Origin: a virus | Lineage: Duplodnaviria > Heunggongvirae > Uroviricota > Caudoviricetes | DNA length: 20,988 nucleotides | Direction: 5' to 3' (one strand) | IMG/VR virus record: IMGVR_UViG_2778261588_000006 | Span: 1 to 20,988 of that record | Shown: piece after piece, positions 1 to 19,713 of the stretch | How positions within the stretch are numbered: position 1 is the first letter of the stretch | Layout: the number at the start of each line of letters is the position of its first letter | Translations under genes and position numbers: made by a program | The notes under the pieces: generated by a model | The model's input: the letters and a program-made list of their open reading frames with translations, nothing else | What the model was told of the DNA's origin: nothing | Databases searched by the model: none

Positions 1-1248
1 ATGGCACTGAATATTCCATTCAGAAATGCGTACTATCGTTTTGCATCCAGTTACTCATTTCTCTTTTTTATTTCCTGGTCGCTGTGGTGGTCGTTATACG
101 CTATTTGGCTGAAAGGACATCTAGGGTTGACAGGGACGGAATTAGGTACACTTTATTCGGTCAACCAGTTTACCAGCATTCTATTTATGATGTTCTACGG
201 CATCGTTCAGGATAAACTCGGTCTGAAGAAACCGCTCATCTGGTGTATGAGTTTCATCCTGGTCTTGACCGGACCGTTTATGATTTACGTTTATGAACCG
301 TTACTGCAAAGCAATTTTTCTGTAGGTCTAATTCCGGGGGCGCTATTTTTTGGCTTGGGGTATCTGGCGGGATGCGGTTTGCTTGATAGCTTCACCGAAA
401 AAATGGCGCGAAATTTTCATTTCGAATATGGAACAGCGCGCGCCTGGGGATCTTTTGGCTATGCTATTGGCGCGTTCTTTGCCGGCATATTTTTTAGTAT
501 CAGTCCCCATATCAACTTCTGGTTGGTCTCGCTATTTGGCGCTGTATTTATGATGATCAACATGCGTTTTAAAGATAAGGATCACCAGTGCGTAGCGGCA
601 GATGCGGGAGGGGTAAAAAAAGAGGATTTTATCGCAGTTTTCAAGGATCGAAACTTCTGGGTTTTCGTCATATTTATTGTGGGGACGTGGTCTTTCTATA
701 ACATTTTTGATCAACAACTTTTTCCTGTCTTTTATGCAGGTTTATTCGAATCACACGATGTAGGAACGCGCCTGTATGGTTATCTCAACTCATTCCAGGT
801 GGTACTCGAAGCGCTGTGCATGGCGATTATTCCTTTCTTTGTGAATCGGGTAGGGCCAAAAAATGCATTACTTATCGGAGTTGTGATTATGGCGTTGCGT
901 ATCCTTTCCTGCGCGCTGTTCGTTAACCCCTGGATTATTTCATTAGTGAAGTTGTTACATGCCATTGAGGTTCCACTTTGTGTCATATCCGTCTTCAAAT
1001 ACAGCGTGGCAAACTTTGATAAGCGCCTGTCGTCGACGATCTTTCTGATTGGTTTTCAAATTGCCAGTTCGCTTGGGATTGTGCTGCTTTCAACGCCGAC
1101 TGGGATACTCTTTGACCACGCAGGCTACCAGACAGTTTTCTTCGCAATTTCGGGTATTGTCTGCCTGATGTTGCTATTTGGCATTTTCTTCTTGAGTAAA
1201 AAACGCGAGCAAATAGTTATGGAAACGCCTGTACCTTCAGCAATATAG
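1..1248 (+). CDS. cscB: MFS oligosaccharide:H+ symporter of the LacY family (sucrose permease-like), host gene
   Basis: 415-aa ORF starting at window base 1; 12-TM-like hydrophobic profile; LacY-family motifs (DKLGLKK, NFHFEYGTARAWG, FDQQLF, GPKNALL, FKY). Recognised from memory as CscB-like, not searched. Confidence 0.8.
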   Translation: MALNIPFRNAYYRFASSYSFLFFISWSLWWSLYAIWLKGHLGLTGTELGTLYSVNQFTSILFMMFYGIVQDKLGLKKPLIWCMSFILVLTGPFMIYVYEPLLQSNFSVGLIPGALFFGLGYLAGCGLLDSFTEKMARNFHFEYGTARAWGSFGYAIGAFFAGIFFSISPHINFWLVSLFGAVFMMINMRFKDKDHQCVAADAGGVKKEDFIAVFKDRNFWVFVIFIVGTWSFYNIFDQQLFPVFYAGLFESHDVGTRLYGYLNSFQVVLEALCMAIIPFFVNRVGPKNALLIGVVIMALRILSCALFVNPWIISLVKLLHAIEVPLCVISVFKYSVANFDKRLSSTIFLIGFQIASSLGIVLLSTPTGILFDHAGYQTVFFAISGIVCLMLLFGIFFLSKKREQIVMETPVPSAI

Positions 1249-1257
1249 ACGTAAACT

Positions 1258-1301
1258 TTTTCCGGTTGTTGTCGATAGCTCTATATCCCTCAACCGGAAA
1301 A
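1258..1301. other. 11-bp perfect inverted repeat (TTTTCCGGTTG / CAACCGGAAAA) with 22-nt loop, immediately 3' of the permease
   Basis: Read directly from sequence; possible terminator or protein-binding dyad, loop too long for a canonical intrinsic terminator. Confidence 0.35.
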
Positions 1302-1689
1302 TAATAATAGTAAAATGCTTAGCCCTGCTAATAATCGCCTAATCCAAACGCCTCATTCATGTTCTGGTACAGTCGCTCAAATGTACTTCAGATGCGCGGT
1401 TCGCTGATTTCCAGGACATTGTCGTCATTCAGTGACCTGTCCCGTGTATCACGGTCCTGCGAATTCATCAAGGAATGCATTGCGGAGTGAAGTATCGAGT
1501 CACGCCATATTTCGCTATCAGGATTCTGTGTGATGGTTACATCGCCCGGCTCAGGGCTGTTTAGTCATCAGCGCTTTCTGACAGTGCTGAGATTTCAACC
1601 TGTTGCAGTAAAAATGAGTAGATATAAGGCAAGTGTGCTGCCAAACCCATCTTTTACGGGGTGAAGGTAGATTTCGTTTGAAGGGTATC

Positions 1690-1704
1690 TGGTGTCCCCT
1701 GCAG
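1690..1704 (-). other. Putative prophage att core: partial tRNA-Arg 3' end (CTGCAGGGGACACCA on minus strand)
   Basis: Minus-strand 15-mer matches the acceptor-stem 3' half plus CCA of an argW-type tRNA-Arg as I recall it; no T-arm or remainder of the tRNA is present, as expected for the duplicated core at a prophage junction. Lies between the host permease and the excisionase. Confidence 0.5.
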
Positions 1705-1777
1705 ACATCTACTTGAAGCGGCAGGGGATTGATTGGAATGGTGTTTTTTAGGTGTGAGAAATATTTTACCCGCTATT

Positions 1778-1978
1778 TTACCCATTGGCGCGGCTTAAGA
1801 GCTTATTTTTGAATTCACAATGGTCACGATATAACCATCTTGCGCGTCCGTGGATAACTTTGGCTTTTGGCAGGTCGCCGGACTTAATCCGGTCATAGAT
1901 GAAGGTTTTACCGAAGCCAGTATCGGCCATGATGAATTTCAAATCAACCAGGGAATCAGGCTGTAGTTCGTGTTGCAT
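1778..1978 (-). CDS. torI: Excisionase / AlpA-family DNA-binding protein (TorI-like recombination directionality factor)
   Basis: 66-aa ORF with AlpA/Xis-like winged-helix pattern (TGFGKTFIYDRIKSGDLPKAKVI...GRARWLYRD); sits next to the att core; matches my recollection of KplE1 TorI in size and sequence, unverified. Confidence 0.6.
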   Translation of the reverse strand: MQHELQPDSLVDLKFIMADTGFGKTFIYDRIKSGDLPKAKVIHGRARWLYRDHCEFKNKLLSRANG

Positions 1979-2035
1979 GAGTGCTATCTCCGAATAGGGA
2001 ATCGAACCTGCAAATCAGGCAATAAAAAACCGCCA

Positions 2036-17257: not shown

Positions 17258-17442
17258 ACGCCACAATTCAAACGATACCAGAGCTTCTTATCCAGACACG
17301 AGGCAATCAGACCGAAGTGGCGAGGATGCTTTCCTGCGCAAGAGGAACAGTGCTCAAGTACAACCGAGACAGCAAAGGCGAGCGTCATGTAATAGTTAAC
17401 GGCGTCCTGATGGTCAAACAAGGAAAGAGGGGAAGACGATGA
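17254..17442 (+). CDS. ninH: NinH-like protein
   Basis: IPELLIQTRGNQTEVARMLSCARGTVLKY...VNGVLMV parallels lambda NinH. Confidence 0.7.
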   Translation: MNATIQTIPELLIQTRGNQTEVARMLSCARGTVLKYNRDSKGERHVIVNGVLMVKQGKRGRR

Positions 17443-17957
17443 GCATAAGAGAACTAAACCTCACCAAAGAGCAGCACGAGTGGCTGAATGGCTGGCTTGA
17501 ACTGTGGGGCGCATGGGTTTATTCAGGTCGACTGGAAAAGCGCATGAGCAGCGTAATAGCGAAGTTCATGGAGAGCGTAGAGCCGGGAAGAGTTATGACA
17601 AGGCCAATGTGTAATGATGATGATGGAATGTTGATTTCTCAGGTCGTCGATTCCGTCATGTGCATTGACAAGAAAGCCTTTGGCATCCTCCTCAGCTACT
17701 ACGCTCATGGTTCATCTAAGCGAGCAATTGCATCCTACTATCACGCGACTGCAAAGCCACGCAAGATGTGTGGACGTGGTGGCGAGGGATGGAGAAAACC
17801 TTCACTGGCAACCTGTAGAAACGAAATTGACGACATCCTGAAAGCGTCATTATTTGTTTTATACCAGCCAATGCAAAATGCTTTCAAAATGCGTAAACGT
17901 GTTGAGAAAGTTAAGCATGTTGCTGTTAAAAGCCTTGACATGCAATTAGCCATTTAG
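17439..17957 (+). CDS. Q: Late-gene antiterminator Q (QuuD / non-lambda Q family)
   Basis: Positioned between ninH and the lysis cassette; WGAW and RPMCNDDD motifs resemble QuuD-type Q as recalled; unlike lambda Q. Confidence 0.6.
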   Translation: MSIRELNLTKEQHEWLNGWLELWGAWVYSGRLEKRMSSVIAKFMESVEPGRVMTRPMCNDDDGMLISQVVDSVMCIDKKAFGILLSYYAHGSSKRAIASYYHATAKPRKMCGRGGEGWRKPSLATCRNEIDDILKASLFVLYQPMQNAFKMRKRVEKVKHVAVKSLDMQLAI

Positions 17958-17964
17958 CCATAAT
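17935..17964 (+). promoter_or_regulatory. Candidate late promoter PR' (-35 TTGACA 17935-17940; -10 CATAAT 17959-17964, 18-bp spacer)
   Basis: Consensus -35 and near-consensus -10 straddling the Q stop codon, where lambdoid late promoters lie. Confidence 0.35.
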
Positions 17965-17973
17965 TAGAAGGTA

Positions 17974-18017
17974 AGCTGCCGTTAGTGACTCTTAAGTTGC
18001 AACGGTGGCTTTTTTTG
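17974..18017 (+). terminator. Candidate tR'-like intrinsic terminator (stem 17974-17983 / 18001-18010, then T7 run)
   Basis: About 10-bp stem (two G-U pairs) with large loop followed by TTTTTTTGTTTG; about 35 nt downstream of the candidate PR' start. Confidence 0.35.
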
Positions 18018-18040
18018 TTTGCACAACAGGTAAGAGCATT

Positions 18041-18090
18041 GCGCGCCTGACGAGTCCATGAGGGACGAAACGCATTAGCGTCGCGCGGAG
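18041..18090 (+). ncRNA. Hammerhead self-cleaving ribozyme motif (type I topology)
   Basis: Core CUGACGA 18047-18053; stem II GUCC 18054-57 / GGAC 18063-66 (loop AUGAG, G10.1-C11.1 pair); GAA 18067-69; stem III ACGC 18070-73 / GCGU 18078-81 (loop AUUA, A15.1-U16.1 pair); cleavage triplet GUC ending at C 18082; stem I CGCGC 18042-46 / GCGCG 18083-87. Every invariant core position is satisfied. Confidence 0.6.
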
Positions 18091-18532
18091 TATCCCCAGC
18101 CGGGGAATAACTGGATACCAGGGGAGACAACCCTAAGCGCATTTACGAGTGTGTTTAGGGCGTGGGTCGGCAATGACTCCCTGTGCAGCCGACATCTGGC
18201 CCGGCAACATACAGTGCTCTTTCCGTTGTGCTGAATTAAGCGAATACCGGAAGCAGAACCGGATCACCAAATGCGTACAGGCGTCATCGCCGCCCAGCAA
18301 CAGCACAACCCAAACTGAGCCGTAGCCACTGGCTATCCTGAATTCATCAGTGATAGTTATGCTGCGGCCTTCTACACATGACCTTCGTGAAAGCGGGTGG
18401 CAAGAAGTTGCGCTAACAACCTCCTGCCGTTTTGCCCGTGCATATCGGTCACGAACAAATCTGATTACTAAACACAGTAGCCTGGATTTGTTCTATCAGT
18501 AATCGACCTTATTCCTAATTAAATAGAGCAAA

Positions 18533-18553: not shown

Positions 18554-18877
18554 ATGAAGATGCCAGAAAAACATGACCTGTTGGCCGCCATTCTCGCGGC
18601 AAAGGAACAAGGCATCGGGGCAATCCTTGCGTTTGCAATGGCGTACCTTCGCGGCAGATATAATGGCGGTGCGTTTACAAAAACAGTAATCGACGCAACG
18701 ATGTGCGCCATTATCGCCTGGTTCATTCGTGACCTTCTCGACTTCGCCGGACTAAGTAGCAATCTCGCTTATATAACGAGCGTGTTCATCGGCTACATCG
18801 GCACTGACTCGATTGGTTCGCTTATCAAACGCTTCGCTGCTAAAAAAGCCGGAGTAGAAGATGGTGGAAATCAATAA
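18554..18877 (+). CDS. S: Holin S (class I, dual-start S107/S105)
   Basis: [39 protein letters not shown]... is essentially lambda S as recalled; Met1-Lys2-Met3 dual start. Confidence 0.95.
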
Positions 18878-19337
18878 TCAACGTAAGGCGTTCCTCGATA
18901 TGCTGGCGTGGTCAGAGGGAACTGATAACGGACGGCAGAAAACCAGAAATCATGGTTATGACGTCATTGTAGGCGGAGAGCTATTCACTGATTACTCAGA
19001 TCACCCTCGCAAACTTGTCACGCTAAACCCAAAACTCAAATCAACAGCAGCCGGTCGCTATCAGCTTCTTTCCCGTTGGTGGGATGCCTACCGCAAGCAG
19101 CTTGGCCTGAAAGACTTCTCTCCGAAAAGCCAGGACGCTGTTGCACTGCAGCAGATTAAAGAGCGTGGCGCTTTACCGATGATTGATCGTGGCGATATCC
19201 GTCAGGCTATCGATCGTTGCAGCAATATCTGGGCTTCATTACCCGGTGCAGGTTACGGTCAGTATGAACATAAAATCGGTGACCTGATTGCCCGGTTTAA
19301 AGAGGCTGGCGGGGTGGTAAATGAAGCTGAGCTATAA
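18861..19337 (+). CDS. R: Endolysin R (lytic transglycosylase)
   Basis: [39 protein letters not shown]... matches lambda R over most of its length; the C-terminal ~20 aa differ. Confidence 0.95.
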
Positions 19338-19713
19338 GCTGGTTATCGCTGCTTTCTTCGTGACTGTCATCGGTTCTTTCACATGGTCTGCCAGCCACTA
19401 CTACAGCAAATATCAGCACGAAAAGAAACGTGCTAATGAGGCTGTACGAAATGCTGAATCAGCAACTGCCATTACCAATAACGTCCTGCAATCACTACAA
19501 ATCGTCAATACAGTTCTGGAGGCTAACCAGTATGCAAAACAGCAGATCGCACTGGAGTCACAGAGAACCCAGGAAGATATCAAAGGGGCTGTTGCGGATG
19601 ATGATTGTGCTGTACGTCCTGTGCCTGCTGCCGCTGCTGACAGGTTGCGGAAGTACGCGAACAGTTTACGTGCCGGTTCCGGCGGTACCGCTGCCAACAA
19701 GCCTGACCACTGA
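19321..19713 (+). CDS. Rz: Rz-like inner-membrane spanin (i-spanin)
   Basis: N-terminal TM (LVIAAFFVTVIGSF), coiled-coil body, directly after R with 17-nt overlap; not lambda Rz sequence. Confidence 0.6.
   Translation: MKLSYKLVIAAFFVTVIGSFTWSASHYYSKYQHEKKRANEAVRNAESATAITNNVLQSLQIVNTVLEANQYAKQQIALESQRTQEDIKGAVADDDCAVRPVPAAAADRLRKYANSLRAGSGGTAANKPDH

Follow-up and report, generated by a model that had tools for sequence, protein, structure and literature searches.

Introduction

Why should the late-operon leader of a lambda-like Escherichia coli phage carry a hammerhead ribozyme, and what could its cleavage be for? The question is raised by a 20,988-nucleotide (nt) stretch of Caudoviricetes DNA, IMG/VR record IMGVR_UViG_2778261588_000006 (positions 1 to 20,988; hereafter the window). 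An earlier inspection of its letters (the sequence-only reading) had pointed out a hammerhead motif of 50 nt between the antiterminator gene Q and the holin gene S. Our comparative analysis indicates, with a probability of about 0.8, that this is part of a genuine and selected hammerhead cassette that would cut the late leader. The hammerhead is the catalytic module of an RNA of ~170 nt, or 213 nt with its closing helix (18020-18232), and the same unit recurs in unrelated phages in two permuted forms.

Hammerhead motif in the late leader

Read on the plus strand, 18041-18090 is GCGCGC-CUGACGA-GUCC-AUGAG-GGAC-GAA-ACGC-AUUA-GCGU-C-GCGCGGAG. The sequence-only reading had found every invariant position of the hammerhead core in it, and this is confirmed: C3-A9 fall at 18047-53, G12-A14 at 18067-69, A15.1-U16.1 at 18070/18081 and C17 at 18082, all of them in register within 18042-18087. 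The three stems follow the order of a type I hammerhead in the sequence as well as in minimum free energy (MFE) and centroid folds, with loops capping stems II and III and stem I open where the chain ends exit. The proposed extent needs trimming, as the paired part is 18042-18087 and G18041 and G18088 are unpaired, which leaves stem I with 5 base pairs (bp), not 6. The claimed setting also stood: the motif lies on the strand of the late transcript, starts 25 nt past the terminator tR' and puts the cut site 471 nt upstream of the ATG of S (18554).

A descriptor of the core and the A-U pair, with stem I of at least 4 bp, stem II of at least 3 and stem III of at least 3, matched the window once, at 18042-18087 (+). 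No dinucleotide-preserving shuffle of the window out of 2000 matched at the observed stringency and one out of 2000 did at the relaxed one. Neither a second hammerhead nor a further cassette copy was found in the window with the descriptor or a covariance model. MFE and centroid folding both give the three-way junction, whether for the isolated 60-mer, the 213-nt unit (folding z = -4.5 for the unit) or the 300-nt native leader (z = -4.2). Because the motif looks like a textbook minimal hammerhead, a synthetic or planted origin was considered; it is ruled out by natural isolates from several continents, by metagenomes and by natural variation.

Accessory domain fused to the hammerhead

The 50-nt segment had been taken to stand alone. 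It is fused to an accessory domain of ~125 nt that is conserved at least as strongly, and the whole is enclosed by an outer helix; the 50-mer is not autonomous. Beyond the hammerhead we find five further helices, PA, PB, PE, PC and PD, two of which are pseudoknots. In the first, PB, the consensus nnnGGG in the PA loop pairs with CCCnnn ~100 nt downstream, and the pairing is kept as CC/GG, GC/GC, AA/UU or UA/UA. The second is PE, whose 3' strand GACUCCC (18175-81) is carried with UGUGCA in the PD loop; at least 8 different complementary sequence pairs form it in the family. The outer helix, 21-22 bp here, covaries as well: the arms in member L087 differ in sequence yet pair (-27.3 vs -28.3 kcal/mol), and in EhYP a U.G pair is replaced by C-G.

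The joining segments GCGCGGAG, GAAUAACU, CCAG, CGUGG, YRYGCA and CAUCUNG are invariant. About 50 unpaired nt are invariant across phages of very different hosts, which argues for a conserved partner or an intrinsic tertiary role.

Rfam gave no family for the accessory domain (18083-18250) at E <= 10, and no known second ribozyme or riboswitch (twister, pistol, hatchet, HDV, glmS etc.) in eight member loci at E <= 0.1. A tRNA- or transfer-messenger RNA (tmRNA)-like identity of the domain was rejected, as ARAGORN and the Rfam tRNA model call none in the window; the domain is called a tRNA in no member, though adjacent tRNAs are called.

Comparative alignment and covariation

For the alignment, 26 distinct sequences of the family were brought into one frame by rotating the permuted members computationally and filling variable loops with N; none of the 181 columns was altered by MAFFT. 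Pairs were counted over eight helices including the pseudoknots, that is 48 pairs and 1184 cells. Paired cells amount to 98.1%, compared with 83.5 +/- 0.6% in shuffles and 34-46% in slid controls. Both sides of the pair change in 25 of the 48 pairs, and the covariation score is 0.367 against 0.104 in shuffles; none of 500 shuffles reaches any of these measures. Covariation supports seven of the eight internal helices and the outer helix (Table 1).

Within the hammerhead, 95-100% of the cells of stems I-III are paired, and stem III shows compensatory G-C to A-U or C-G changes in 5 members. Cleavage-site position 17 is C in 20 members and A in 6. The segment GCGCGGAG is kept even in members whose 5' stem I partner drifts. 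Judged on these alignments, a core invariant bar N7, with C or A at position 17, and covarying stems I-III make function far more likely than the basis of the sequence-only reading did. The conservation acts at the RNA level.

An independent search, designed to break circularity, used a pattern of the hammerhead 3' half plus GCGCGGAGUAUCC. The known members were recovered together with two new ones, L123 and L124. Their PB is GCCAGA/UCUGGC, in which the previously invariant GGG/CCC has become AGA/UCU by covariation, and their PE is UCGGCUC/GAGCCGA. Both keep GAAUAACUGGAUACC and the PA block intact in a search that required neither.

Table 1 Features of the cassette and of the surrounding late region (window positions; compensatory changes are counted over the family alignment)
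Feature	Positions	Strand	Comment
Q	17439-17957	+	
pR'-like promoter, TTGACA, 18 nt spacer, CATAAT	17935-17964	+	11/12 consensus match; overlaps the end of Q; HK75 pR' annotated at the homologous place
tR' terminator hairpin and T-run	17974-18017	+	HK75 Tr' annotated at the homologous position; independent hairpin in the leader fold
Cassette	18020-18232	+	
Outer closing helix, 5' arm GCACAACAGGUAAGAGCAUUG	18020-18041	+	Duplex with 18212-18232, -28.3 kcal/mol; 0/200 shuffles as stable
Stem I, 5' strand CGCGC	18042-18046	+	Pairs with 18083-87; compensatory change in 2/5 pairs
Core C3-U4-G5-A6-N7-G8-A9 (CUGACGA)	18047-18053	+	Invariant in 26 distinct members bar N7 (C/A/U)
Stem II GUCC/GGAC, loop II AUGAG	18054-18066 (18054-57/18063-66)	+	3/4 pairs compensatory; loop and stem length free in the family
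Core G12-A13-A14 (GAA)	18067-18069	+	Invariant
Stem III A15.1-CGC/GCG-U16.1, loop AUUA	18070-18081 (18070-73/18078-81)	+	A15.1-U16.1 (A18070-U18081) invariant; 1/4 pairs compensatory
Predicted scissile bond, C17 (18082) / G1.1 (18083)	18082-18083	+	Position 17 is C or A (allowed H) in all members; chemistry presumed from the family
Stem I, 3' strand GCGCG and GA, predicted 5' end of the 3' product	18083-18089	+	Nearly invariant
PA hairpin GUAUCC/GGAUAC	18090-18118 (18090-95/18113-18)	+	0/6 pairs compensatory; pairs never vary and are uninformative on covariation
PA loop: PB 5' strand GCCGGG (18099-18104), then GAAUAACU (18105-12)	within 18090-18118	+	GAAUAACU invariant
PE 5' strand GGGAGAC	18122-18128	+	Pseudoknot with 18175-81 in the PD loop; 7/7 pairs compensatory
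PC hairpin, 10 bp, loop AUUUACGAGU	18131-18160	+	6/10 pairs compensatory; opened in the permuted form
CGUGG, then PD hairpin GUCGGC/GCCGAC	18161-18193	+	CGUGG invariant; 4/6 PD pairs compensatory
AUCUGG, PB 3' strand CCCGGC (18200-05), AACAUA	18194-18211	+	PB pseudoknots with 18099-18104; 2/6 PB pairs compensatory
Outer closing helix, 3' arm CAGUGCUCUUUCCGUUGUGC	18212-18232	+	Pairs with 18020-18041
S, lambda-type holin	18554-18877	+	First downstream gene on the same transcript; from the open reading frame list
R	18861-19337	+	
Rz	19321-19713	+	

Circular permutation of the unit

In eight contigs with seven distinct sequences (L018/L082/L101, L079, L099, L093, L098, L102), and later in L123 and L124, the parts stand in a permuted order: CGUGGG - PD(PE3') - PB3' - linker - hammerhead - GCGCGGAG - PA(PB5') - PE5'. 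The PC loop is opened in these members, and in most of them the flanks pair as an equivalent helix. Since PB and PE complementarity holds across the hammerhead, hammerhead and domain are one fold in which the cut site is constant and the chain ends have two alternative positions, the PB3'/stem I linker and the PC loop, with the order of the hammerhead core unchanged. The permuted ends leave via PC, beyond stem I and still on its side of the fold. Two permutations with a constant cut site argue that the nick itself is the selected output.

L018 and L079 were first read as a unit followed by a hammerhead and a partial repeat, as would be expected of tandem copies or of circular-RNA generation; on closer reading each is a permuted single unit. 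Two hammerhead sites, the arrangement of viroid-like RNAs and retrozymes, were not found, as covariance model R1 gives one copy per locus.

Distribution and filled and empty alleles

The sequence-only reading regarded the motif as an insertion specific to this phage. This has to be given up, because the same unit is present in 15 E. coli genomes, in Enterobacter and Pectobacterium phages and in many metagenomic phages. A prophage in the chromosome of E. coli LSC52 carries the region at 100% identity, with the gene of an 'antiterminator Q family protein' on one side and lysis genes on the other. The flanking late-leader DNA is shared by ~1100 of the 5426 complete E. coli genomes; 15 carry 18042-18209, each once, in the chromosome and without annotation. 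The Q/terminator modules that precede the cassette are of at least four different kinds. Filled and empty alleles were found for both topologies and show that the inserted unit is ~170 nt, not 50, and is bracketed by the complementary arms (18020-41, 18212-32).

Outside E. coli, a T7-like Enterobacter phage carries 207 nt including the arms at 95.7% identity, between capsid and tail-tubular genes. Three Pectobacterium/Dickeya phages carry the inner 168 nt, starting exactly at the hammerhead, at ~80% identity and 5 nt upstream of a tRNA-Met. Exact-pattern scans of IMG/VR and metagenomes added 12 more viral contigs and ~18 metagenomic contigs. A looser DNA pattern, GGATACCAG-N30-55-GCGTGGGT, gave only chance matches in viral contigs beyond the known members. 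When one genome per bacterial species was scanned, all 7 matches were due to chance and no species representative had the cassette, which therefore looks phage-borne and rare.

Genes of the HNH homing-endonuclease type recur beside the cassette or its neighbours: E. coli SBF22 L006 984-1496 (between Q and tR'), L123 1802-2356 (after RtcB) and L124 2990-3517 (HNH-AP2). Their recurrence fits cassette sites as hot spots for mobile inserts.

Genomic neighbours

Seven contigs from large phages, the longest 148 kb, carry the cassette embedded in an array of tRNA genes of the same strand. In every case tRNA-Thr and tRNA-Gly stand on either side of it, and in the contigs that reach downstream its 3' end is 3-4 nt from tRNA-Gly. 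The distance is 5-6 nt to tRNA-Met in Pappous and ~11 nt to tRNA-Ser in L103, so that the 3' end stands 3-11 nt from the next tRNA in three lineages, and the neighbouring tRNAs are always co-oriented. In L021 the cassette is followed by tRNA-Met and then by a lambda-S-like holin; in L087 and L094 tRNA arrays lie ~1 kb upstream. The Q-S slot itself holds tRNA genes in other lambdoid and P22-like phages, for example tRNA-Asn in BTP1-like phages. Most members that do not abut a tRNA have closing helices of 13-22 bp.

Two cassettes abut a gene for the RNA ligase RtcB. The order is RtcB - cassette - tRNA-Pro in L102 (RtcB at 828-1985, minus strand) and cassette - RtcB in L123 (618-1775, plus strand); both proteins match Pfam PF01139 (E <= 1e-113), with 42% identity between them. 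The ends made by hammerhead cleavage are exactly those that RtcB joins. A general linkage is ruled out by 23 other phage RtcB loci in which the covariance model found no cassette, including loci whose RtcB is 90-98% identical. The close RtcB relatives L113, L128 and L129 have no cassette and give a clean empty site. The RtcB association is a lead, not a rule.

Some further elements were seen at these loci. In L129, a cassette-free allele, ~230 nt of structured-looking sequence (2233-2470) without an Rfam match lie between the tRNA and the RtcB start. Directly after the tRNA-Ser that follows the cassette in L103, 608-701 match the small RNA (sRNA) RprA with 63.9 bits (gathering 70, E 1.6e-6), and this element may be a phage-borne mimic of the host sRNA. 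In L017 (1049-1380) and L097 (1243-1900), tRNA-Thr and the hammerhead are separated by 330-680 nt of additional sequence that sister contigs lack and that has no Rfam match. The stretch in L097 holds a second tRNA 3' half, which suggests a split or intron-interrupted tRNA gene.

Proposed mechanism and role

The cassette would be transcribed only once Q permits readthrough of tR', as its transcription should need Q-modified polymerase. Stems I-III would then fold co-transcriptionally and the chain would be cut between C18082 and G18083; our analysis makes self-cleavage after C18082 very likely. The leader fragment from pR' would then end in a 2',3'-cyclic phosphate, and the downstream RNA, starting GCGCGGAGUAUCCC with a 5'-OH, would be expected to fold as the double-pseudoknot domain (PA/PB, PD/PE and hairpin PC). 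The sequence-only reading supposed that self-cleavage processes the 5' leader. Simple leader removal is inadequate as a description, because the products would stay paired via the 21-22-bp outer helix. At least 25 bp are provided by stem I and the outer helix here and by PB, PE and the closing helix in the permuted form, so the products would stay together and the result would be a fixed nick or a defined 5'-OH end with no release of the leader.

As to the role, we tentatively favour, at somewhat less than even odds, a hammerhead that is built in to make the 5' end of a separate, structured phage RNA with a 5'-OH terminus, in a 'tRNA slot'. The cassette would be an accessory 'RNA moron' that sits in the Q-S slot used by tRNA genes in other lambdoid phages and inside tRNA arrays in large phages. 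The 3' side of the RNA would be set by the following tRNA, through RNase P, or by the long helix; the closing helix is about as long as is usually cited for RNase III substrates. The downstream function of the RNA probably touches tRNA or RNA-repair biology.

Several points weigh against the hammerhead or against this role. Hammerhead_1 (RF00163) aligned with the motif over its full length under permissive filters, at 24.7 bits where gathering is 34 (E = 6e-4 in 301 nt), and the hammerheads of relatives score 23-32 bits where gathering is 48.5-52, so that every member is below threshold. The isolated 60-mer is of unremarkable stability (z = -0.47). With a stem I of only 5 bp and a freely variable loop II, the usual tertiary contact between loop II and stem I, which gives hammerheads fast cleavage at physiological Mg2+, is not identifiable; loop II shows no covariation with the invariant domain, and the PA/PB pseudoknot occupies the place where the stem I contact element would be expected. 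L018 has U.U at 10.1-11.1, and stem II of L079 has 2 bp. The alignment was segmented by hand on conserved anchors and leans towards structure, and most members were found via one 18-mer, which limits the diversity. The role is assigned wholly from genomic context. Finally, the cut in the permuted form splits the domain into two strands, which is awkward if the hammerhead simply matures the 5' end of an independent RNA, and which points to the nick or its ends as the conserved output.

The Rfam scores need a comment, since the sequence-only reading had named a failed covariance-model search as one part of a refutation. No Rfam model matched the region at its gathering threshold. That threshold is the curators' score cut-off for a model and no biochemical property. 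Apart from it, the motif shows the core, cleavage-site and helix features by which hammerheads of clan CL00010 are recognised. Standard Rfam annotation misses this well-supported hammerhead family, and because the scores of the family lie below gathering, such a refutation test would come out borderline or negative and is too weak for it.

Alternative explanations

In another view of the role, the domain is more than a scaffold. It might be a new functional RNA class that needs the hammerhead nick or its 5'-OH and 2',3'-cyclic phosphate ends, for instance as a clamped RtcB substrate, sensor or decoy in a tRNA cleavage-repair conflict, or the hammerhead might be allosteric and under the control of a ligand or protein. 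We regard this as possible and doubtful. If a nick-dependent or allosteric domain were true, a hammerhead of bacteria or phages would for the first time have a defined biological function, and in a genetically tractable E. coli lambdoid phage.

That the cassette works only in cis, as leader processing or insulation, is unlikely. The hammerhead would remove the variable pR'/tR' leader, and the structured 5'-OH end would stabilise or standardise the late mRNA or tRNA precursor, the domain being a scaffold and end protector and the effect like that of the synthetic insulator RiboJ. The position of the cassette fits: it is sense-oriented, in 5' leaders or between genes, often just past terminators, and the variety of the Q/terminator modules before it would make a standard 5' end useful. 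Moreover, the 5'-monophosphate-dependent RNase E pathway acts poorly on 5'-OH ends. However, the invariant unpaired nucleotides far exceed the needs of end protection, and the outer helix, PB and PE would keep the products paired, so that the leader would not be released. The next start codon is ~15 to ~470 nt away, often a tRNA follows instead, and inside tRNA arrays there is no mRNA to insulate.

A regulated ribozyme is less probable again. Here the double-pseudoknot domain would bind a metabolite, an ion or a protein as an aptamer and thereby switch hammerhead cleavage, with the expression of late genes or tRNAs tuned in consequence. The conservation is like that of a riboswitch, with invariant junction nucleotides framed by covarying helices and pseudoknots, and both topologies keep the domain joined to stem I in one fixed register. 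Yet the folds show no alternative pairing mutually exclusive with stem I or the core, Rfam gives no riboswitch match, and no consistent class of downstream genes hints at a ligand.

A device linked specifically to RNA repair seems to us improbable to a similar degree. It would present the clamped 2',3'-cyclic-phosphate/5'-OH nick as an RtcB substrate and serve as a sensor, a decoy, an inducer of host RtcR/rtcBA or a religatable joint. The two divergent RtcB genes beside the cassette, one upstream and one downstream, its presence in tRNA/RNA-repair islands, ends held by at least 25 bp in both topologies as in tRNA-splicing substrates, and a permutation that conserves the nick and not the chain ends all speak for it. 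The cassette-free RtcB loci described above speak against it, most cassette phages, including Pappous, show no nearby RNA-repair gene, and co-location in accessory-gene islands could account for both RtcB cases.

That the motif is a chance resemblance or a dead relic without catalysis is very improbable: the sub-threshold Rfam scores and the z of the isolated 60-mer are what it would predict, but the shuffles gave no equal motif, the core is invariant, the stems covary, and relatives of ~70-100% identity occur in unrelated phages. Least credible of all, to the point of being negligible, is that the conservation is caused by a small protein gene on the other strand, not by RNA, since the antisense open reading frame (62 amino acids, 17954-18142, minus strand), which spans tR' and the hammerhead and has similar peptides (LVSSYSPxxDTPR) in relatives, is an artefact of a conserved block that is stop-free in all three antisense frames, varies in open length from 27 to 148 codons, has no conserved start (ATG in frame 1 in 7 of 16 members and in none of the tRNA-array members) and changes by compensatory base pairs, not by synonymous substitution.

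Comparison with known systems

Type I hammerheads of RF00163 (clan CL00010; e.g. those of Schistosoma and satellite DNA) share with the cassette the core, the three-helix junction, cleavage 3' of H17, capped stems II and III and an open stem I. Stems II and III here almost match the RF00163 consensus. In contrast to RF00163, the 5-bp stem I runs straight into the ~125-nt double-pseudoknot domain with no internal loop to contact loop II, which is unconstrained; the 3' strand of stem I is invariant in sequence and the score falls below the curated threshold.

Prophage-associated bacterial hammerheads have been described (Perreault et al. 2011, PMC3088659), and their biological function is an acknowledged open question (PMC6155905). 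They likewise occur in phages or prophages, in intergenic regions on the sense strand of polycistronic transcripts, but are mostly of type II, often flank a gene in several copies and have a loop-loop pseudoknot (PMC3088659, PMC6155905). Here there is one type I copy per genome, with a large fixed accessory domain and in tRNA slots. Neither PMC3088659 nor PMC6155905 mentions E. coli or lambdoid examples or such an accessory domain.

Theta ribozymes, which are minimal HDV-like ribozymes, also self-cleave in phage tRNA clusters, are co-transcribed with tRNAs and cut no more than 5 nt to either side of a tRNA 3' end (Kienbeck et al. 2024, PMC10879173). The cassette belongs to another ribozyme class, and its cut would be separated from the upstream tRNA by ~50 nt and from the following one by ~130 nt, so the hammerhead would mature the accessory domain and not a tRNA. 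One fold with chain ends in different places is also known from the permutations of hammerheads themselves (types I/II/III; non-circular types, Eckert & Weinberg 2023, PMC10085705). What differs is that here the whole hammerhead-plus-domain unit is permuted and the core order is unchanged.

RiboJ is a synthetic insulator in which a hammerhead and a hairpin in the 5' leader remove variable upstream RNA and leave a structured 5'-OH end. The cassette would resemble it as a leader hammerhead giving such an end; it differs in its 125-nt conserved pseudoknotted accessory, in products that would stay paired and in being found also where no mRNA follows. T4 species 1/2 RNAs, ROOL and GOLLD are conserved, highly structured non-coding RNAs beside phage tRNA genes. 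The cassette shows no sequence or Rfam relationship to them, carries its own self-cleaving ribozyme and is much smaller than ROOL and GOLLD.

Full-text literature searches returned no description of a hammerhead in lambdoid late leaders, of the accessory domain or of permutation at the level of the unit, although a mention in Jimenez et al. 2011 JBC stays possible. What is new here is a type I hammerhead fused to a large, conserved, doubly pseudoknotted domain without known relative and in two natural permutations. The recurring neighbours, tRNA arrays and two RtcB ligase genes, point to RNA processing and repair, which are active in phage-defence research. A covariation-supported hammerhead in the late-operon leader of lambda-like E. 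coli prophages is placed in arguably the best genetic system available.

The leader hairpin in other lambdoid phages

Downstream of the cassette, a second terminator-like hairpin with a short T-run (GGCAAGAAGTTGCGCTAACAACCTCCTGCC-GTTTTGCC) stands at 18395-18440 (+), ~115 nt upstream of S; it goes unreported by a simple scan. Past the leader hairpin, phage HK75 (L004 ~1767-1950) has what looks like the remnant of a tRNA or tmRNA (…GGTTCGATTCCGGCCGCCA), which is not called by ARAGORN and scores 20.2 bits with the Rfam tmRNA model, below gathering. The closing arms 18020-41/18212-32 are also present in lambda-type (E. coli A30, L003 ~1122-1200) and HK75-type (L004 ~1622-1700) leaders, where they surround unrelated loops of 37-38 nt. 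The 37-nt loop of A30 has only a common 9-mer (GCGCGCCTG) with the 5' end of the cassette. As the arms are shared with these other leaders, the hairpin is a conserved feature of the lambdoid Q-S leader whose apical insert is exchangeable.

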